Of a DNA stretch of 64,000 nt, positions 21,201 through 38,921 are shown piece after piece. This DNA comes from Escherichia virus TH22. Location of the stretch: sequence record MT446396.1, one strand, 5' to 3'. The first letter of the stretch is position 1. Every line of letters begins with the position of its first letter. The notes under the pieces were generated by a model. The model worked only from the letters and a program-made list of their open reading frames with translations. It was not told the DNA's origin and made no database searches. Position numbers and translations under genes: made by a program.

Positions 21201-22024
21201 GTATTTTTACATTTATCAATGAATCTGCAGATAAACCAGGTCCGAAACCCAGTAAATCAGAACAACAATGGGTTGAGATAGGGGTTGAATTTTATACAGC
21301 AAAAGAAAAAGGAATGACCTCGAAGAAGTTTGCTGAAGAGAAAGGAATCAACTATTCGACCTTTACCAAAAGCATGTCGAGGTATCATTCAAGAATTCAG
21401 ACTGCTTATAAAGTATCCAAGCTCAAAAAGAAACCTGCTGGTAAACTTACGAAGGCTGAACGCCAGCTGATAATGGTGAATAGCTTTAGGAAGAGCATAA
21501 GAGATAAGATTGCTAACGAAGGCGCTGCAAGCAACACCAAATCTGCCAGATGGTTCGCAGAGACAATTAAGAAATCAGTTCGCGGCCACGTAACGGCTAA
21601 ACCTCAACCAGGTAAACTTTATGCTTATATCTATGATGCAAAGCATAAGGATACTCTTCCATACTGGGACAAATATCCGTTAATCATTTATCTTGGTCTA
21701 GGTAAGCATAATTTGATGTACGGTTTGAACTTGCACTATATTCCACCGAAGGCACGTCAAGAGTTCCTTGAGGAACTTCTTAAGCAATATGCTAATACTC
21801 CTACGATTACAAACAAGACTCATCTGAAGATTGATTGGTCAAAGGTGAAGGGATTTAAAGGGGCTGACCAGATGATTAAAGCATATATACCCGGCAATAT
21901 AAAAGGTACTATCACTGAAATCAAGCCCAGCGACTGGGCAAATGTGGTATTACTCCCCCTTCAGCAGTTTTTTTCAAAAGGCAAAAGATATTCTTCCCAG
22001 AAAGTATGGAGAAATTCACTTTGA
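21197..22024 (+). CDS. 2: DNA end protector protein gp2
   Basis: Start at MSIFTF (ATGA overlap with gene 4 stop) gives 275 aa (T4 gp2 ~274 aa); in-frame alternative start at 21188. Confidence 0.8.
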
Positions 22025-22680
22025 ATTATCAGTTTATATATTCATCGTTAATTGAAAGGGCCTGTAACAGGGTCCTGATTTCATATAAAGAATCTCATCA
22101 CATCATTCCGAAATGTATGGGTGGTTCAAATGACCCAGATAATCTGGTCGATTTGACTCCTGAGGAACATTATGTAGCCCATCAACTATTGGTTAAAATA
22201 TATCCTACAAATCCAGGTTTAAGTTTTGCTGCTACATCCATGTGCCAGTCAAGCAAGTATTTGAAACGCAATAATAAATTATTTGGTTGGTTAAGACGTA
22301 GACACGCTGACAATATTTCTAAAAGTCAAACCGGTAAAGTTTACTTTAATAATGGTGTCAAATCGATAAAACTATTTCCATGGGAAAATATTCCGGATGG
22401 GTTTGTCAAAGGAAGACATTACAGTCCAACCAAGGGTACAAAACATTCTCGCAATAATGGTCATTTTAAAAATAAAGAGATTCAGGATGAATTGAGAAAG
22501 CGCCGGTGGGAAAAAGATAGGCAAGAAATGTGTAAAAACTTCGGAGTTGATACCGTCGAGCAAGCTCGAGAGTTGGTCTTAGCATATAAAAAGGAATTGC
22601 ATCCTCGATACTGGGTAAAGCCAATGTTGGAACGTTATCCGTTTATGACTAAGCTAAGACTTAACACATTAATAAAATAA
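22006..22680 (+). CDS. Free-standing HNH homing endonuclease (second copy, paralog of 20066)
   Basis: HNH signature [12 protein letters not shown]...[23 protein letters not shown] closely parallels the 20066 protein; start overlaps gene 2 end. Confidence 0.8.
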
Positions 22681-23365: not shown

Positions 23366-24038
23366 AATTAATTGCGATTGTGGGTAAAAAACGCAGTGGT
23401 AAAGATACGACTGCTGATTATGTTATTAGTCAAAACGGAACAAAGTGGCAGCTTGCAGGTCCGATTAAAGAAGCGCTTTATAAAGCGTGGATTCGTCAAG
23501 ACCTGCCACACAATTTGACCCTGGAAAATTTTGATGGACAAGGTTATGACCGTGAAAAAACCTTGATAATGAACAACACCGAAGCTTATATTCTTCTGGT
23601 TGATGCTCTTGAATGGTTGAAACAACAATACAATCTTGACCTTCCGAATCCAGATATGGTTCGTAAAATCATTGAATTTCACACACTAAATAATGTTGAG
23701 CCCTGGACAGTTAGACGTTTCATGCAGACCCTTGGAACTGACATCGTTTGTACAGAGTTCGACAGCATGTTTTGGATTAAAACTTTTGCGTGCGATTATC
23801 TTGACAACCTCTATTCTGGATATAAATATTACGTTGTCCCAGATGTTCGTCAAAAGAACGAACTTGATTCGCTTCGGGCGATGGGTGCTACAATAATCTT
23901 TGTAGAGCGCGATGAAGCAAATCATTCTACTGATACACACATTACGGAAGCTGGACTTCCACCACTAGCTAGTGACATTGTTATTAAAAACGATGGCACA
24001 CTCGAAGAACTTTTTGATAAAATTAATAAGGTAATATA

Positions 24039-24039
<1 letters not shown>
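23362..24039 (+). CDS. 1: Deoxynucleoside monophosphate kinase gp1
   Basis: N-terminus MKLIAIVGKKRSGKDTTADYV...YQLAGPIKEALYKAW matches T4 gp1 P-loop region. Confidence 0.9.
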
Positions 24040-24730
<691 letters not shown>

Positions 24731-24790
24731 TGTACAAATGAGTGTAGGTGCAGTATTATGTTCCTACACCAACGAACAAACGGAGTTAAT
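24731..24790 (+). promoter_or_regulatory. Early promoter cassette with -10 inside inverted repeat
   Basis: TGTACA -35, 17-bp spacer, TATTAT -10 flanked by inverted repeat GTGTAGG...CCTACAC; precedes first internal-protein gene. Confidence 0.55.
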
Positions 24791-25123
24791 ATGAACATCA
24801 AAACTTACAACGAGTTTTTAGCCGAATCCGCCATCAATGAGACCAAATCAATTGATGATAGTGAAGGCTCTCTGAAATTTGGTTTAACCAAAAATGCAGA
24901 TGGTGTTTTCTTTCAGATTGGTAATGAACGTTTTCAAACGTCCAAATATTCCAAAGCTGCAGTTGAAGCTGTCCTGAAATCTGGTGGCAAGTGGAAAGGC
25001 AAAGAAGGTACTAAAGAAATTGGTATCGCTGTTGACGGTGGTATGGCTTATTTTAAAATTGGCGATGAACAATTTATTATGTCTGCTCGCGGACGTAAAG
25101 AACTGGCAAAACTTTATAAATAA
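24791..25123 (+). CDS. Internal protein (IP)-like, CTS variant MNIKTYNEFLAE
   Basis: N-terminus resembles the T4 capsid targeting sequence (MKTYQEFIAE) with a (L/I)xE protease site; first of five tandem genes; start chosen at internal Met of track ORF. Confidence 0.65.
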   Translation: MNIKTYNEFLAESAINETKSIDDSEGSLKFGLTKNADGVFFQIGNERFQTSKYSKAAVEAVLKSGGKWKGKEGTKEIGIAVDGGMAYFKIGDEQFIMSARGRKELAKLYK

Positions 25124-25131
25124 GGTTTCTT

Positions 25132-25404
25132 ATGAAAACTTTCAATGAATTTTTCAACGAGTCCCAACTGAATGAAGAAGTAAAAATTAGTAAAGCAGTC
25201 AAAGCTATGATTGACAATATCAATCACCTGTATAGCATTGACTTGACTGACCATATAACAATTGGTAACAAACGCAACTTTTTCGCGTTTGACATTTCAG
25301 AACTTGACCAGAACCAAATTAATAACATTGAGCGTTTTGCCAATGACAAGGGTCTCCGCCATGAGACAGCTGGTTATAAAAAATACGCAATTTATCTAAA
25401 ATAG
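25132..25404 (+). CDS. Internal protein-like, CTS variant MKTFNEFFNES
   Basis: CTS-like N-terminus; 8-nt spacer with RBS after previous gene. Confidence 0.6.
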   Translation: MKTFNEFFNESQLNEEVKISKAVKAMIDNINHLYSIDLTDHITIGNKRNFFAFDISELDQNQINNIERFANDKGLRHETAGYKKYAIYLK

Positions 25405-25412
25405 GATTTCAA

Positions 25413-25712
25413 ATGCAAACGCTCCATGAATTTTTGGTAGAAAACAATTATCTGGCAGAAGCAAAAACCTGGCCTCTGGGCCTTCAGAAGAAAAACACCT
25501 ACAAATGGGTTGACTTCAAAGGTAAAGGCGACGCTGAAGACTTTGACCAGCTGTGTAAAAATGGTTATACCTTCCTTGACTCTAACTATAATAAAATTAC
25601 CTCATTTAGTCAGAAATCCAGCATTGCATATATTGAAACTGGTAAGAACACCCCTAAGAACATCACTGACGACTTCGCAGCTTATGGCGTGATTCGCGGT
25701 TCAAAAATGTAA
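25413..25712 (+). CDS. Internal protein-like, divergent CTS (MQTLHEFLVENNYLAE)
   Basis: Weaker CTS match but same tandem context and spacing. Confidence 0.5.
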   Translation: MQTLHEFLVENNYLAEAKTWPLGLQKKNTYKWVDFKGKGDAEDFDQLCKNGYTFLDSNYNKITSFSQKSSIAYIETGKNTPKNITDDFAAYGVIRGSKM

Positions 25713-25766
25713 TGTACATGATGGGATAACTGCAGTATAATTATCCCATCAACTACTGGAGACAAC
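25712..25766 (+). promoter_or_regulatory. Early promoter cassette (PeSL-like)
   Basis: TGTACA -35, TATAAT -10 within inverted repeat GGGATAA...TTATCCC, conserved leader CATCAACTACTGGAGACAAC then ATG. Confidence 0.7.
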
Positions 25767-26009
25767 ATGAAAACTTATCAAACATTTATAACAGAATCTT
25801 CCCATGGTATGGAAGTTAAACTTGGTCAAGCCCTTGCTGAAGCAGAGCGCCTGTTTGCACGTATCAAAGAACTTGCTGATTCTGTAGATGCATCATCTTT
25901 TAAAGGCGACCAGGGTAAAGTTAAAGCTCTCCTTGCTCTTTGTTCTGATGCAGGCGAAATTGCTAAGAATGGTACCAAGATGAAAAAACGCCTAGAAGAC
26001 TTAAAATAA
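25767..26009 (+). CDS. Internal protein-like, CTS MKTYQTFITES
   Basis: Near-exact CTS; 80 aa; own promoter cassette. Confidence 0.75.
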   Translation: MKTYQTFITESSHGMEVKLGQALAEAERLFARIKELADSVDASSFKGDQGKVKALLALCSDAGEIAKNGTKMKKRLEDLK

Positions 26010-26064
26010 GTATACATGATGGGATAACTGCAGTATAATTATCCCATCAACTACTGGAGACAAC
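26010..26064 (+). promoter_or_regulatory. Early promoter cassette, exact duplicate of 25716-25766
   Basis: Identical sequence ACATGATGGGATAACTGCAGTATAATTATCCCATCAACTACTGGAGACAAC. Confidence 0.7.
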
Positions 26065-26298
26065 ATGAAAACTTATCAAGAATTTATTAATGAAACTGCT
26101 GATGTTAAAGTGCAATTCATTTACACCGGCAAGAAAGATAAAATGGGCGAAATGCCTTATGGAACTCTCCGCGACGCCTTAGATAATTACGGTCAGCTCG
26201 GCGGTGAAGAGTTTGGGGACTATTTTGTTATCCAGGGTCCGGCAGAAGTTATCGAGAAATGGGCTAACAAGTATAAATCAATTTTCCGTAAAAAATAA
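26065..26298 (+). CDS. Internal protein-like, CTS MKTYQEFINET
   Basis: CTS nearly identical to T4 IP consensus; 77 aa. Confidence 0.75.
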   Translation: MKTYQEFINETADVKVQFIYTGKKDKMGEMPYGTLRDALDNYGQLGGEEFGDYFVIQGPAEVIEKWANKYKSIFRKK

Positions 26299-26357
26299 GT
26301 GTACTTTTAGATATGGGATAGTGTATAATTATCCCATCAACTACTGAGGAGAATAAA
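26299..26357 (+). promoter_or_regulatory. Early promoter cassette (PeSL-like)
   Basis: GTGTAC -35, TATAAT -10 within GGGATAG...TATCCC inverted repeat, leader CATCAACTACTGAGGAGAATAAA. Confidence 0.7.
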
Positions 26358-26543
26358 ATGAAACGTTGCGAATTAATTAGAAATGTTACTGCCCTTGTTG
26401 CTGTTACCGCTTTTGGTTTTAGCATGTTTGCTGGCTTTATGTTGAATATGCTTTCAACTTCTGAGAATATAATCTCTTTAGTAGTTGCATTCTTAATTGG
26501 TTCAATCTCTTTCGTTATGGATAAAATCTCTAAAGGTGAATAA
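26358..26543 (+). CDS. Small hydrophobic membrane protein
   Basis: 61 aa, two hydrophobic segments; directly after a promoter cassette. Confidence 0.6.
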   Translation: MKRCELIRNVTALVAVTAFGFSMFAGFMLNMLSTSENIISLVVAFLIGSISFVMDKISKGE

Positions 26544-26950
26544 TGAACGTTGAATATTATGTATATGCAGATTATGAAAATAATCCGTCTAAAGATGAAG
26601 ATAATCGTTTAGGTGTAGATGCTTTCGATTCCCCTGCTGCCGCGTGGCAATGGGTTGAAAGAACCGATATTCCTTACCGTTATATTGAAGTGGTCGACCA
26701 CGCAGGAAACAAGTATCCTAAGGAAGCATATGTTCCTTCTGGGAAGGTGAATTTCCTTCTGTTTGCAGGTGATAACTATTATCCACGCGGTGGGTATACC
26801 GATTTAATCGCTAAAGCATTTTCTGAAGATGAACTGCGTGAAATTATAGAACAGAACAGTAGAAAACCGATGTATGGTTCTGACCGTTTTGACTGGTGGC
26901 AAATTGTTAATGCCAATACCCATACTGTTGTTGATGAGGGTTGTTTATGA
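26543..26950 (+). CDS. Hypothetical protein
   Basis: 135-aa ORF, start overlaps previous stop (TAATG); no recognisable motif. Confidence 0.55.
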   Translation: MNVEYYVYADYENNPSKDEDNRLGVDAFDSPAAAWQWVERTDIPYRYIEVVDHAGNKYPKEAYVPSGKVNFLLFAGDNYYPRGGYTDLIAKAFSEDELREIIEQNSRKPMYGSDRFDWWQIVNANTHTVVDEGCL

Positions 26951-27423
26951 ATATTAAATTTGGACAGACTATCCCTAAAGGTTATGTTGTTGAAATTGAA
27001 ACCTGGGAAAATGACGGTGATAACTATAAAACCCAGACAATATTTGGTGTAGAAGAACAAGAAATCCAACAGTACAAATATATCCTAGAACTTTTCCATG
27101 GTTCGCATTGCAACAACCCGGATAAATGTGGTAATTCAGAATGGGACGTAGTTAAAGACTTTATTATCGCACACATTGAATCTGGTGTAAAATCTGGCCA
27201 ATTAACTCCTGAATTCATTAACAAAACACTTTGTATTGAAAATCTGGAAAACCTGGTTGAAGGTGGCAATGGCCAGGAATTTGAATTATTGTGTTCTCTC
27301 CAGGAATTGCTGGGCGAGCCGGTGGAATATGATAGCGTTTTGCGCGTAGTTTCGTGGGTAAAATTATACATCATCGAAGAAGAAATCCAAATACCAAACG
27401 TTAAAGCACTTGATATGCTTTAA
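26947..27423 (+). CDS. Hypothetical protein
   Basis: ATG at 26947 overlaps previous stop (ATGA); track ORF start at 26941 is a non-ATG codon. Confidence 0.55.
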   Translation: MNIKFGQTIPKGYVVEIETWENDGDNYKTQTIFGVEEQEIQQYKYILELFHGSHCNNPDKCGNSEWDVVKDFIIAHIESGVKSGQLTPEFINKTLCIENLENLVEGGNGQEFELLCSLQELLGEPVEYDSVLRVVSWVKLYIIEEEIQIPNVKALDML

Positions 27424-27501
27424 TAAAAACGCGTTATTATTAATAAGTACCCTCTATTACCAAAGGTTCTTCCCTCAAAGAGCCTTTCATAATAGAATTA
27501 A

Positions 27502-27575
27502 GGCCCTGTAGCTGGACGGTCAAGCGAGCGACTCATAATCGCTGGATGGTGGTTCGATTCCACCCAGGGCCACCA
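27502..27575 (+). tRNA. tRNA with anticodon CAT (Met, or Ile if lysidine-modified)
   Basis: Cloverleaf folds by hand: acceptor GGCCCTG/CAGGGCC, D-loop with GG, anticodon stem AGCGA/TCGCT, loop CTCATAA, T-arm GGTGG-TTCGATT-CCACC, encoded CCA. Confidence 0.85.
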
Positions 27576-27593
27576 AACTTATTTTAAATTATC

Positions 27594-27701
27594 ATGGCGA
27601 TAGGTATTGTAGATGCGGTTCGATTCCGTCCGGGGTAAGTGCCCTAGCATGCTTGGAGCATGAGTGACTTAATATTGGTGGTTCGAGTCCACCCCGCTAT
27701 G
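27594..27701 (+). ncRNA. Non-canonical tRNA-like element (two T-arm-like motifs)
   Basis: Contains GCGG-TTCGATT-CCGT and GGTGG-TTCGAGT-CCACC T-arm-like hairpins, but no 5' acceptor pairs at tRNA distance; could be a stable small RNA or decayed tRNA. Confidence 0.3.
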
Positions 27702-27709
27702 AACAAACA

Positions 27710-27785
27710 CGAGGCATAGCTCAGAAGGAAGAGCAAGGACCTTCTAAGTCCTAGGTCGTAGGTTCGATTCCTACTGTCTCGACCA
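27710..27785 (+). tRNA. tRNA-Arg (anticodon TCT)
   Basis: Acceptor CGAGGCA/TGTCTCG, D-arm GCTC...GAGC, anticodon stem AGGAC/GTCCT with loop CTTCTAA, T-arm GTAGG-TTCGATT-CCTAC, encoded CCA. Confidence 0.9.
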
Positions 27786-27958
27786 AACAAGAAACCGGGT
27801 CGCTACCGGTAAGTCGTCGGACTGAAGTTCCCTGTTTAAGGACTGGCATTAATAAATCTTTACGATTTGTTGATGTCCCCTTATATCACAGCTGAAACGG
27901 CGCACCTAATTAACGATTCGAGGAAATATCTTTGCCGTAAGCCGAGTAGCGTTTTTGA

Positions 27959-28050
27959 CGGAACGTTCGGATATGGTCGAGATATGGCCTTTTAAAAATA
28001 TTGAGTAGCGTCAACTACTTGATAACCGGGTTCAAATCCCGGCGTTTCGT
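27959..28050 (+). ncRNA. Non-canonical tRNA-like element
   Basis: Perfect T-arm CCGGG-TTCAAAT-CCCGG plus acceptor-like 3' strand pairing with CGGAACG 92 nt upstream, but no valid D or anticodon arms; internal hairpin GAGTAG-N6-CTACTT. Confidence 0.3.
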
Positions 28051-28100
28051 ACAAACACTTGCCTAGCAGGTGGAACCCCGACAAGGTTGCCACAAGGTAT

Positions 28101-28129
28101 AGCCCCTTCCGAAAGGTTGGGGCTTTTTT
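28101..28129 (+). terminator. Rho-independent terminator after tRNA region
   Basis: AGCCCC-loop-GGGGCT hairpin followed by TTTTTT; a TATAAATA motif follows at 28129-28136. Confidence 0.55.
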
Positions 28130-28162
28130 ATAAATATAACGTACCCATAACTAAGGAAATTT

Positions 28163-28717
28163 ATGAAACTTTTAAAATATCTAAGCTGGATTCTGTTAGT
28201 ACCACTGGATTTCATTTCAATGATTCTGGCTGTTATCCTTGCACCATTTGTAGTGCCGTTCCATAACAAAAAGACTGGTAAGCTTCCGTTCGGATTTGAC
28301 TGGATGATGACATACGATAATCCAATTGATGGTGACCGTGGTCATGTTAAACGCTGGGAAAAAATCAGAAAATGGCCGTTAGGCGTTTACTTCCAGCGAG
28401 TGGCCTGGCTCTGGCGAAACAAAGCCTACAATTTTGCTTATCATAAGCTGGGCCGCGATTGCGATTCTAAATTCCATTATAAAGGTAATCCTGATGTTGA
28501 ATCGGGCTCCCCGGATAAAGCTCACCATGGCTGGCTCTGGATGTGGAATGATAATGCATGGGGCGTGTTCGCTTCCGTACCTTATCTTAAAGTTGGTGGA
28601 ATCACCTTTTATCTGCGCGTGTATTGCGGTTGGAAGCTCAAAAGTCTTCTGTCCCGTCCTATCCCGAAAGCTATGTTAGCCTTTCATATCAATCCCTTCC
28701 GTTTTTATAAGAACTAA
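28163..28717 (+). CDS. Hypothetical membrane protein
   Basis: 184 aa, hydrophobic N-terminal segment; RBS GGAAATTTATG. Confidence 0.6.
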   Translation: MKLLKYLSWILLVPLDFISMILAVILAPFVVPFHNKKTGKLPFGFDWMMTYDNPIDGDRGHVKRWEKIRKWPLGVYFQRVAWLWRNKAYNFAYHKLGRDCDSKFHYKGNPDVESGSPDKAHHGWLWMWNDNAWGVFASVPYLKVGGITFYLRVYCGWKLKSLLSRPIPKAMLAFHINPFRFYKN

Positions 28718-37316: not shown

Positions 37317-37808
37317 ATGAATATATTCGAAATGTTACGCATAGATGAAGGTTGTAAGTTGGATTTGTACCGTGACACCGAAGGCTTTTGGACCATCGGC
37401 ATCGGTCAATTGATAACTAAGAACCCATCGAAAGACGTTGCTCGCGCTGAGCTGGACAAATTAATGGGTCGTGTTTGCAACGGTAGGATTACCCAGATTG
37501 AAGCTGAAACCTTGTTTAACCGTTCAGTGGAAAAAGCTAAAGCCGGAATCTTGAAACATCCTGTCTTAAAACCTGTTTATGATGTACTGGATGAAGTTCG
37601 TCGTTGCGCACTCATTAATATGGTATTCCAAATGGGTGTAGCTGGTGTAGCTGGTTTTCCTAAGGGGCTGCGATTGCTCAAGGCTAAATCATGGGAAGCT
37701 GCTGCTAAGGAACTGGCTGACTCAAGATGGTATAAAGTCCAGACTCCGAACCGGGCCAAACGAGTTATTGAAACTTTCCGTACTGGAACTTTTGACGCAT
37801 ACAAATGA
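37317..37808 (+). CDS. e: Endolysin (T4 lysozyme e)
   Basis: [12 protein letters not shown]...[14 protein letters not shown]...[19 protein letters not shown] matches T4 lysozyme over its length (163 vs 164 aa). Confidence 0.95.
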
Positions 37809-37864
37809 GTTTACATCTCCAAACGATAGGGTTATAATGACCCTATCAACTACGGAGAACAAAC
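37809..37864 (+). promoter_or_regulatory. Early promoter cassette
   Basis: GTTTAC -35; TATAAT -10 in loop of inverted repeat GATAGGG...CCCTATC. Confidence 0.7.
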
Positions 37865-38281
37865 ATGACTCGCATTAATTTAACCCTGGTATCTGAACTT
37901 GCTGACCAACACCTTATGGCTGAATACCGTGAGCTTCCTCGCGTGTTTGGTGCTGTTCGTAAGCATGTGCAAAATGGTAAAAAGGTGTCTGACTTTAAAA
38001 TCCCATCATCTTTTCTTTTAGGAACTGGTCATGTCACCTTCTTTTATGATAAGCTTTTGTTCCTTAAAAACCGTCATCAAGAACTTATTGCTGAATGTTT
38101 AAAGCGAGGGTTTAATATAAAAGATATTTCTACCCAAGATTTAAATGATATTCCTGATGAATGGAAGAATGATTATCAACCATCAATCTGGTCAATTGAA
38201 ATCAGTCAATCCAGACTGAATGAGAAAATTTCTCAAAAGCCTACCTGGTACAAATACTATGGGAAAGCTGTGTACGCTTAA
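37865..38281 (+). CDS. denV: Endonuclease V (pyrimidine-dimer DNA glycosylase)
   Basis: [35 protein letters not shown]...[13 protein letters not shown] matches T4 DenV (138 aa). Confidence 0.95.
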
Positions 38282-38329
38282 CTAAAAAGGTTGTATAATG
38301 ATTTTATCAACCAAACAATGGAATATAAA
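38270..38329 (+). promoter_or_regulatory. Early promoter cassette overlapping denV stop
   Basis: GTGTAC -35 within last denV codons, TATAAT -10 inside GGTTG...CAACC inverted repeat. Confidence 0.6.
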
Positions 38330-38644
38330 ATGAAAACTTATCAAGAATTTATTACTGAATCTACTCAACAACGTGTTGAAGGTGGTTATGTCTGGATTGA
38401 ACAGTTAACCCCACCAAGTGAAACAAGCACTGGTTCGTGGAAAATTACTGTTGATGGTCCTGGTGGAAAACGCAAGACTATTAAAGAAATTAAAGGTTAT
38501 TATGACGAAGCTAAATCATGGGCTGGTAGTCATGTAATGCAGATTAAAATTGCAAACCCAGATAACGTTCATGCGGCAAAAGCGTTCCGTCGCATTGGTA
38601 ATAAACTTTATGATGCGTTTTTGCGCGATTTCCCTAAAGCTTAA
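38330..38644 (+). CDS. Internal protein-like, CTS MKTYQEFITES
   Basis: Start at internal Met of track ORF; CTS identical to the 38658 protein; position matches T4 ipII/ipIII beside denV/e. Confidence 0.7.
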   Translation: MKTYQEFITESTQQRVEGGYVWIEQLTPPSETSTGSWKITVDGPGGKRKTIKEIKGYYDEAKSWAGSHVMQIKIANPDNVHAAKAFRRIGNKLYDAFLRDFPKA

Positions 38645-38657
38645 CTAAAGAGCCATT

Positions 38658-38921
38658 ATGAAAACTTATCAAGAATTTATTACTGAATCCGCTAAAGCTC
38701 CTGCTGGTTCCTTTAAAGTCCGCGCCTTCGCTGGTGATGCTGAAGACTTTGGTACCATGAAGCGCAATGGTTATTCTTTCTTTGGCGGCGATGGCAAAGA
38801 AATTGTTACCTATGCAAAACGCCGCGAAATCGCATTTGTGGTTGCTGGTAAGAAAGTTGATGTTGACGATATTGAATGGGACTTTGAGACCTTTGGTATT
38901 GTTTCTGGCGGTAAAGCGTAA
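38658..38921 (+). CDS. Internal protein-like, CTS MKTYQEFITES
   Basis: 87 aa; first 32 nt of coding sequence identical to 38330 gene. Confidence 0.7.
   Translation: MKTYQEFITESAKAPAGSFKVRAFAGDAEDFGTMKRNGYSFFGGDGKEIVTYAKRREIAFVVAGKKVDVDDIEWDFETFGIVSGGKA

Follow-up and report, generated by a model that had tools for sequence, protein, structure and literature searches.

Between gene 57B and trna.4, where T4 carries the single internal protein gene ipI, Escherichia virus TH22 (MT446396.1) carries five consecutive small genes on the plus strand, and the question this locus raises is whether their products are packaged into the phage head and injected against host defences, as an earlier note on this DNA had proposed. 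We analysed a 64,000-nt stretch of the TH22 genome (hereafter the window), which represents a VR7/EAWsc9-like Gaprivervirus (95–97% identity). The region is a T4-like coliphage hypervariable "internal protein" locus, real and ordinary for the genus; more exactly, it is the ipI locus, hyperplastic in this VR7-like T-even phage, and its five genes are, in order, a member of an unnamed family, ip9, a member of another unnamed family, ip5 and ip6 (Table 1). To the reading of the whole as an array of proteins with capsid targeting sequences (CTS) at the ipI locus, packaged, processed and injected as an anti-restriction arsenal, we assign a probability of roughly 0.7.

Table 1. Features of the two internal protein loci in the window
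Feature	Coordinates	Strand	Remarks
gp57B, anti-CBASS Acb1; upstream boundary of ip locus	24275..24730	+	Pfam PF23474 Acb1, E 1.2e-59; annotated 57B or Acb1 in VR7, EAWsc9
P1, promoter/stem-loop	24731..24790	+	TGTACA-N17-TATTAT; stem-loop 24739-24771 around the -10, then GGAG ribosome-binding site; -14.8 kcal/mol, z -2.0
Gene 1, CTS protein, 110 aa	24791..25123	+	Leader MNIKTYNEFLAE, then S; phrog_3966, mostly annotated hypothetical; mature ~10.7 kDa, pI 9.3
Gene 2, ip9 ortholog, 90 aa	25132..25404	+	Leader MKTFNEFFNE; phrog_7673 internal head protein, E 1.7e-56; annotated ip9 in VR7, VR26
Gene 3, CTS protein, 99 aa	25413..25712	+	Diverged leader MQTLHEFLVE; PHROG family 'internal head protein'; paralog of the 38658 gene
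P2, promoter/stem-loop (PeSL-like)	25713..25766	+	TGTACA-N17-TATAAT; stem-loop 25719-25751 with the -10 in and beside the loop, then GGAG ribosome-binding site; -16.2 kcal/mol, z -3.0
Gene 4, ip5 ortholog, 80 aa	25767..26009	+	Leader MKTYQTFITE, then S; phrog_3499 internal head protein, E 2.4e-41; annotated ip5 in VR26
P3, near-exact copy of P2	26010..26064	+	TATACA-N17-TATAAT at 26011; stem-loop 26017-26049; z -3.6
Gene 5, ip6 ortholog, 77 aa	26065..26298	+	Leader MKTYQEFINE, then T; phrog_8111 internal virion protein, E 1.8e-51; annotated ip6 ('similar to T6 Ip6') in VR7, VR26
P4, promoter/stem-loop ahead of trna.4	26299..26357	+	GTATAATTATCCCATCAACTACTG motif, its third copy; T4 has this element ahead of trna.4 too
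trna.4 homolog; downstream boundary of ip locus	26358..26543	+	phrog_1692; annotated trna.4 in VR7, T4
Second ip locus, gene A, CTS protein, 104 aa	38330..38644	+	Leader MKTYQEFITE, then S; follows e (37317-37808) and denV (37865-38281)
Second ip locus, gene B, CTS protein, 87 aa, gene 3 paralog	38658..38921	+	Opens MKTYQEFITES

Position and gene content of the locus

All five genes lie between 57B/Acb1 and trna.4 and fill that gap, the layout being the one seen in T4 and in 32 other loci (of the 33 loci compared, 32 were anchored on trna.4); the earlier placement of five consecutive genes here, and of a single ipI beside 57B in T4, were both borne out. Across the 32 other T-even loci in which the interval could be delimited, it held between one and five genes per phage, almost exclusively genes with CTS-type leaders, their 67 proteins falling into 14 families. 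The note's description of the array as expanded is right by comparison with T4, which has one gene, but not within the genus, whose members normally carry four or five.

Four of the five genes belong to PHROG families named internal head or internal virion protein, and for three of them near-identical genes in related phages are annotated as ip9, ip5 and ip6. Genes 2, 4 and 5 are orthologs of these in VR7/VR26 at 97–100% nucleotide identity (97–98% between gene 2 and its relatives), which places them with the polymorphic T-even ip genes (ip4–ip10; RB32, RB51, T6, VR7), a polymorphism credited in later papers to Repoila et al. 1994; gene 1 differs from that group in that its family is usually listed just as hypothetical. 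We found no end-to-end match to the order 1-ip9-3-ip5-ip6 in 50,697 phage records, the best coverage being 90%, and an Rfam search of 24000–28400 returned two tRNAs only. With T4 IPI and IPI* the array genes share the 57B–trna.4 slot, the kind of leader, and similar size and charge (IPI* has 76 aa and a pI of 9.0; the five mature parts are predicted at 7.5–10.7 kDa with pI ~6.8–9.3). They differ from T4 IPI in number, in mature parts that lack similarity to it, and in the leader, which in T4 has 19 residues and is cut between ITE and A, whereas in the leaders of the window genes the first x-E site is reached at residue 10, or at residue 12 for gene 1.

Capsid targeting leaders

That all five proteins begin with a T4-type CTS was confirmed by a regular-expression scan of every ATG start in the six frames of the window, with 30 shuffled windows as the control: seven ORFs with a CTS were found in the window (the five of the array and those at 38330 and 38658) versus 0 in the 30 shuffles. 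In the summary of Mullaney and Black's work that PMC9026906 gives, residues 4 and 7 of the CTS matter for targeting and residues 8 and 10 for processing, and these four residues are kept in the array leaders. At residue 4, genes 1–5 have Y, F, L, Y and Y, and at residue 7 all have F, gene 1 being shifted by two residues.

The leaders of genes 1–5 end in LAE, FNE, LVE, ITE and INE, so that the (L/I)xE cleavage site which had been claimed for every leader is there in four of five; the exception is gene 2, which has F-N-E at residues 8–10, with Phe at P3 of the cleavage site, and a canonical L-N-E further on at residues 13–15. The leader of gene 3 is decayed (Q2, L4, H5); it has L-V-E at residues 8–10 plus a second site, L-A-E-A at 14–17, and it is this second site whose position is conserved in homologs.

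Promoter/stem-loop units and exchange of cassettes

From the sequence, the array is predicted to comprise three transcription units, with P1 serving genes 1–3 (which are 8 nt apart), P2 serving gene 4 and P3 serving gene 5, and each unit opens with a sigma-70-type early promoter whose -10 lies inside a conserved stem-loop, the PeSL architecture. The stem-loops of the array promoters have predicted energies of -14.5 to -16.2 kcal/mol (z -2.0 to -3.6) and occur in two or three near-identical copies; T4 ipI is flanked by the same promoter/stem-loop elements. The PeSL concept and the shuffling of cassettes in T4-type phages are due to Arbiol 2010 and Comeau 2014 (PMC2839356, PMC4122927). Like those cassettes, the elements in TH22 are repeated and intergenic, combine a sigma-70-type promoter with a stem-loop, and lie in a hyperplastic region in which the flanked genes differ among close relatives; unlike them, they have the stem GATGGGATAA/TTATCCCATC (GTGTAGG/CCTACAC in P1), the stem encloses the -10 hexamer, and no T-run follows it. 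A terminator scan did not call these stems. The only candidate T4 late promoter in the array was a lone TATAAATA at 25115, and the 8 occurrences of TATAAATA in the window, against 5.8 expected, amount to no enrichment.

The gene order 1-2-3-4-5 of the window becomes 1-2-3-X-5 in VR7 and VR20, 1-2-3-4-Y in EAWsc9, 1-2-3-5 in VR25 and 1-2-4-5 in VR26. Gene 4 is thus present in EAWsc9 and VR26, swapped for an unrelated 92-aa CTS gene in VR7 and VR20, and missing from VR25; gene 5 is represented in EAWsc9 by a different 84-aa allele; and VR26 has lost gene 3 as one unit. Close relatives thus differ by whole cassettes behind P2 and P3, each gene there being present, absent or replaced; the breakpoints fall in the promoter/stem-loop and about the first 30 nt of the leader codons, and P2, P3 and P4, which sit at the cassette junctions, are 95–100% conserved (P1 is 91–100% conserved in five relatives). 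Read from these alignments, the array is modular, and its insertions, deletions and replacements map to the repeated promoter/stem-loop units. It offers a clean example of a promoter-plus-leader cassette as the exchange unit.

These junctions could also be read to mean that the leader is mainly a DNA-level recombination linker, the promoter and first codons together moving cassettes, and that the proteins act as early cytoplasmic effectors after infection without being meaningfully packaged. Such a role would suit the early-type promoter on every unit, the 95-nt stretch of promoter and leader codons that is directly repeated at P2 and P3 (89% identical), the nearly identical leader codon usage of genes 4 and 5 and both second-locus genes, and replacement breakpoints that fall directly after the leader codons, as well as the report that plasmid-supplied IPIII still works without its CTS (PMC9391042). 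We regard it as quite improbable, since the leader is kept at the protein level despite divergence of the DNA: the aromatic/hydrophobic residue, the Phe and the x-E pattern recur in genes 1–3 although the codons used differ; genes 2 and 3 retain the leader with no promoter cassette of their own; and the leader K, T, Y, F and E are invariant in family alignments of distant homologs of genes 1 and 3. Moreover, the 10-residue CTS alone has been found experimentally to suffice for packaging foreign proteins (PMC9026906).

Mature parts of the proteins

The mature parts had been described as unrelated to one another, and this stood among the five themselves (all BLASTP E > 0.1; five different PHROG families) but not across the window, where gene 3 has a paralog in the 38658 internal-protein gene (34% identity over 61 aa, BLASTP E 6e-13). 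Profile–profile comparison also put forward the families of genes 1 and 3 as homologs with 87% probability; we rejected this pairing, as the signal came from the shared leader, the other columns were of low confidence and the predicted folds differ. No BLASTP similarity was found between any of the five mature parts and T4 IPI, IPII or IPIII (E > 0.1 throughout). The known inhibitors Ip1, Ip2 and Ip3 are likewise mutually unrelated, and for that reason homology of the array proteins to them is not to be expected. Pfam searches with all five proteins gave sub-threshold noise only (AHD, CspB prodomain and VirC1, each under the gathering score), and a sequence search of the PDB with the five found nothing credible, only weak matches with E ≥ 0.025, the best being a coiled stretch of NusG for gene 4 (E 0.025). 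To judge from its sequence, the mature part of gene 4 looks helical.

For gene 1 the model (pLDDT 76.7, moderate confidence) predicts a 2x(beta4-alpha), Whirly/PUR-like fold, with sequence identity to the Whirly/PUR/MRP1-MRP2 fold of only 8–13%. The fold consists of beta4-alpha repeats and is typical of single-stranded nucleic-acid binders. SsgA-like proteins, which are not known to bind nucleic acids, score as well against the model, and we therefore offer nucleic-acid binding by the gene 1 product as a hypothesis only. The predicted fold would fit a DNA-associated role at least as well as one as an enzyme inhibitor. The structure of IPI* was absent among the fold matches listed for the gene 1 and gene 3 models.

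A second alternative is that the proteins are packaged but are mainly structural or physical components of the head, basic lysine-rich counter-ions or DNA organisers that aid core assembly, DNA packaging or ejection and inhibit no defence, their diversity reflecting weak constraint. Consistent with it are the predicted fold of gene 1, the calculated mature pI of 8.8–9.3 for genes 1, 3 and 4, the 11–17 Lys+Arg in each of the five mature parts, and literature on IPIII in head morphogenesis and on contacts between internal-protein lysines and DNA (PMC9026906, PMC3012670); the failure of ip4–10 to show a GmrSD target in published assays (PMC12373910) points the same way. Genes 2 and 5, however, are not clearly basic (pI 6.8–8.3), T4 is viable without its internal proteins, and a specific anti-restriction target is now on record for each of the three T4 Ips (PMC12373910). 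Generic charge neutralisation also fails to account for 14 unrelated families, for the turnover of cassettes in near-identical phages or for the adjacency of acb1, and we consider a mainly structural role unlikely.

Proposed function as injected inhibitors

The T-even internal proteins have been described as highly diverse defence proteins whose conserved CTS is their sole shared part (PMC3012670). IPI* of T4 is injected and inhibits GmrSD, a type IV restriction enzyme, of E. coli CT596, IPIII is required on ECOR17 (PMC9391042), and Silas et al. 2025 reported that the type IV restriction enzyme of the GmrSD kind that is inhibited differs for each of T4 Ip1, Ip2 and Ip3, Ip2 and Ip3 being inhibitors of GmrSD-ECOR21/BrxU and of the two-gene GmrSD-ECOR17 (PMC12373910). 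In the same study ip4–10 gave no reproducible inhibition of the GmrSD variants assayed.

Set against this background, the likely fate of the five TH22 products is packaging into the phage head, followed by injection that serves to disarm host defences. From T4 biology, the leader would dock the proteins on the prohead's scaffolding core (gp22), cleavage after Glu by the gp21 protease would remove it, and the mature proteins, probably in hundreds of copies, would remain in the head and enter the host with the DNA. The head module lies outside the 64-kb window, and the relative VR7 (95–97% identical) encodes gp20, gp67, gp68, gp21, gp22 and gp23. Synthesis of the array proteins at the time of prohead assembly is assumed here; the promoters look early. 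By analogy with Ip1–3, each mature protein may inhibit, in a stoichiometric manner, a single variant of one of the host's first-response nucleases, and type IV (GmrSD-family) restriction enzymes are the likeliest targets; the five genes would in that case amount to a shuffled arsenal against restriction, set next to the anti-CBASS gene acb1. Our literature search found no report of virion proteomics on VR7-type internal proteins. The observations that we counted against this reading were the early-type promoters, the Phe at P3 in gene 2, the decayed leader of gene 3, the GmrSD result for ip4–10, the lack of dCMP hydroxymethylase in the genus and of gene 42 and the glucosyltransferase genes in the VR7 record, and the fold of gene 1.

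In our analysis the leader, locus and mature-part diversity elements of the earlier note are supported, and its overall reading, an injected anti-restriction battery, matches the published view and is in our judgement correct and already known. The window adds no new principle. Because internal proteins act at DNA entry they are the phage's first counter-measure to host defences, and the ip locus catalogues, as found in nature, small proteins directed against restriction. The TH22 window holds a compact, well-delimited set of seven candidates; this set and the example of cassette exchange are of use both for target-discovery screens and for engineering phage host range or CTS-based protein delivery.

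The enzymes that these candidates meet may not be those that the T4 proteins meet. Gene 42 and both glucosyltransferase genes are absent from the record of VR7, the nearest relative, and the genus lacks dCMP hydroxymethylase while still carrying dCTPase, denA, denB and alc. Glucosyl-hmC-specific enzymes may therefore not be the relevant enemy, and the targets of the array proteins may differ from those of the T4 proteins. In a variant to which we give a small share of the probability, the DNA would, in view of these absent and retained genes, carry a cytosine modification of another kind, and the seven CTS proteins, five of them from the ipI locus, would form an arsenal aimed at defences other than the glucosyl-hmC-specific GmrSD enzymes that T4 Ip1–3 counter. 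One of its members, the injected gene 1 protein of Whirly/PUR fold, would not bind a nuclease but have nucleic acid as its object, as a shield for the incoming DNA, for instance, or as a decoy.

A second internal protein locus

As with Ip2 and Ip3 of T4, the window has a second ip locus near e and denV with two CTS genes. The order differs, being e-ipIII-ipII-denV in T4 and e-denV-IP-IP in the window, and the mature parts are unrelated to those of IPII and IPIII; the leader of the window locus, MKTYQEFITE, departs from the T4 leader MKTYQEFIAE by a single residue.

A five-gene internal-protein array at the ipI locus

Open reading frames with a capsid targeting sequence (CTS) were found at exactly the five starts for which the earlier note had claimed them; these genes 1-5 lie consecutively on the same strand at 24731-26298, in the slot where T4, as also claimed, has a single ipI. 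When every ATG in all six frames was scanned for the motif, T4-type CTSs turned up at seven starts, those of genes 1-5 and of two genes at a second ip locus (38330 and 38658), against 0 matches in 30 shuffles; the five-gene CTS array is genuine and chance is ruled out. The array is preceded by gp3, gp1, gp57A and gp57B and is followed by trna.4, trna.3 and then two tRNA genes. By its Pfam match (PF23474, E 1.2e-59), gp57B is clearly an anti-CBASS protein of the Acb1 family.

Genes of the CTS array, in window coordinates
Gene	Position	Strand	Feature
gene 1	24791-25123	+	ORF, 110 aa
gene 2	25132-25404	+	ORF, 90 aa
gene 3	25413-25712	+	ORF, 99 aa
gene 4	25767-26009	+	ORF, 80 aa
gene 5	26065-26298	+	ORF, 77 aa

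Megablast assigned the window to the T-even coliphages of the VR7 group, in genus Gaprivervirus (95-97% identity), and GenBank already lists near-identical genes under ip names: the labels in annotated relatives are ip9 for gene 2, ip5 for gene 4, ip6 ("similar to T6 Ip6") for gene 5, "internal head protein" for gene 3 and "hypothetical" for gene 1. The five belong to five different PHROGs families, four of which are named internal head or virion protein; that of gene 1 is phrog_3966, function unknown there.

Leaders and mature parts

The first 10 residues of IPIII are enough for packaging, CTS residues 4 and 7 serving targeting and residues 8 and 10 processing (PMC9026906). In all five window proteins position 4 is aromatic or hydrophobic and position 7 is Phe. 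That each leader ends in (L/I)-x-E held at positions 8-10 for four of the five but not for gene 2, where the residues are F-N-E and a canonical L-N-E follows five positions later. Homologs of genes 1 and 3 in other phages carry the canonical leader, MKTYxEF(L/I)xE, with key residues invariant or nearly so. The leader codons differ among genes 1-3, so it is the protein sequence, rather than the DNA alone, that is being conserved. Gene 3 carries L-V-E plus a second site, L-A-E-A, the latter being the one kept in its homologs. Its leader, MQTLHEFLVE (25413-25460), has drifted from the MKTYQEF(I/L)xE of more distant homologs while the downstream L-x-E-A remains conserved, a hint that processing in this family really takes place at the second site.

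The mature parts showed no similarity to one another (all-against-all BLASTP) or to T4 IPI, IPII and IPIII (BLASTP; all E > 0.1 in both comparisons). The description of them as unrelated therefore holds among the five but not beyond the array, since gene 3 is a paralog of the 38658 gene (BLASTP E 6e-13). Pfam and PDB sequence searches with the five proteins gave no credible match, and so, with the BLASTP results, revealed no clear homology to non-packaged proteins, which the earlier note had named as counting against its reading. The mature proteins have calculated masses of 7.5-10.7 kDa and pI values of about 6.8-9.3, comparable to IPI*. Two AlphaFold2 models were made (genes 1 and 3), and the gene 1 family has a predicted Whirly-like fold.

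Promoter/stem-loop cassettes

Genes 1, 4 and 5 are each preceded by a sigma-70-type promoter (TGTACA or TATACA, N17, TATAAT or TATTAT; P1, P2 and P3), and a fourth copy (P4) lies ahead of trna.4; in each, a stem-loop encloses the -10 element (z -2.0 to -3.6). P2, P3 and P4 are near-identical repeats, that of P2/P3 covering 95 nt at 89% identity and extending ~40 nt into coding sequence, including leader codons. Genes 1-3 are spaced by 8 nt and have P1 in common. This arrangement is of the promoter-early stem-loop (PeSL) type known from T4-type phages (PMC2839356, PMC4122927).

T4 ipI likewise has such an element on either side: in its region (L003 8500-8970) two promoter/stem-loop copies of 40-50 nt bracket the gene (ATTTCACAAAGTTGTTTACATA...GTGATACTATTACC..ATCA), so the single ipI of T4 is itself a PeSL-type cassette. 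The sequence TATAAATA at 25115-25122, which we take to be the T4 late-promoter -10 consensus, overlaps the gene 1 stop codon 10 nt ahead of the gene 2 ATG and might allow genes 2 and 3 to be transcribed late; the window shows no enrichment of this motif.

Cassette turnover among relatives

The array cassettes behave as units. The order is 1-2-3-4-5 in the window, 1-2-3-X-5 in VR7 and VR20 (X, an unrelated 92-aa CTS gene), 1-2-3-4-Y in EAWsc9 (Y, a different 84-aa allele in the place of gene 5), 1-2-3-5 in VR25 and 1-2-4-5 in VR26. Conservation is 95-100% at the promoter/stem-loop junctions, and similarity is lost about 30 nt after the start of the coding sequence. Of 33 other T-even loci, 32 allowed the 57B-trna.4 interval to be delimited; nearly all of its genes have CTS-type leaders, with 1-5 genes per phage and 67 proteins in 14 sequence families; five genes is the maximum observed among these loci and 4-5 is typical for Gaprivervirus. 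No searched phage record spans the order of genes 1-5 end to end, the best coverage being 90% (Megablast).

Beyond the array, trna.3 (region 26543-27423) aligns with close relatives over only ~180-190 of 408 nt at 78-82% identity, and only some relatives have the next ORF (160 aa, 26941-27423), so plasticity runs on past the ip array. The 'rimM' label given to this ORF in EAWsc9 looks doubtful.

Proposed role

By analogy with T4, the leader would bind the array proteins to the scaffolding core, gp21 would then trim it, and the mature proteins would be injected together with the DNA; VR7, the nearest relative, encodes gp21, gp22, gp67 and gp68. With T4 Ip1, Ip2 and Ip3 as the model, the five proteins would most plausibly be specific inhibitors of first-response nucleases. 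Later papers credit Repoila et al. (1994) with the polymorphic ip locus and its shared leader. A 2010 review treats T-even internal proteins as highly diverse defence proteins with only the CTS in common (PMC3012670), and work in 2025 put the defence role on an experimental footing for T4: Ip1, Ip2 and Ip3 each inhibit a different GmrSD type IV enzyme, with no cross-protection (PMC12373910). In the same study ip4-10 had no reproducible effect against further GmrSD variants. Given these accounts, we consider the earlier note's reading of a probable anti-restriction battery correct, yet already the established view. The kind of feature is known; added here are the CTS status and predicted Whirly-like fold of the gene 1 family, the paralogy connecting both ip loci, the exact cassette junctions, and a five-gene order unmatched end to end in the phage records searched.

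Gene 42, a-gt and b-gt are all missing from the VR7 record. Gaprivervirus lacks dCMP hydroxymethylase and retains dCTPase, denA, denB and alc, a gene set implying an unidentified base modification (PMC8056088, PMC12115623); the relevant host enzymes may therefore be other than those T4 meets. In VR7 (L032 12000-45000) a 167-aa ORF occupies the T4 place of 42 and b-gt.

Other loci in the window

The second ip locus (37317-38921) has the order e, denV, IP, IP, whereas T4 has e, ipIII, ipII, denV, and neither of its IPs (104 and 87 aa) is related to T4 IPII or IPIII. The tRNA cluster (27502-27785) is reduced to tRNA-Met/Ile2 (CAT) and tRNA-Arg (TCT), separated by a 134-nt spacer with two T-arm-like GGTTCGA(T/G)TCC motifs (27613-27631 and 27676-27694) at which neither ARAGORN nor Rfam called a tRNA; possible explanations are decayed tRNAs or a small stable RNA akin to T4 rnaC/rnaD. 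Directly 5' of gp3, a 224-aa HNH/Mob-type homing endonuclease ORF (22006-22680) occupies a site with a MobB-like gene in VR7 and none in EAWsc9, and is thus a mobile insertion whose presence differs among close relatives.
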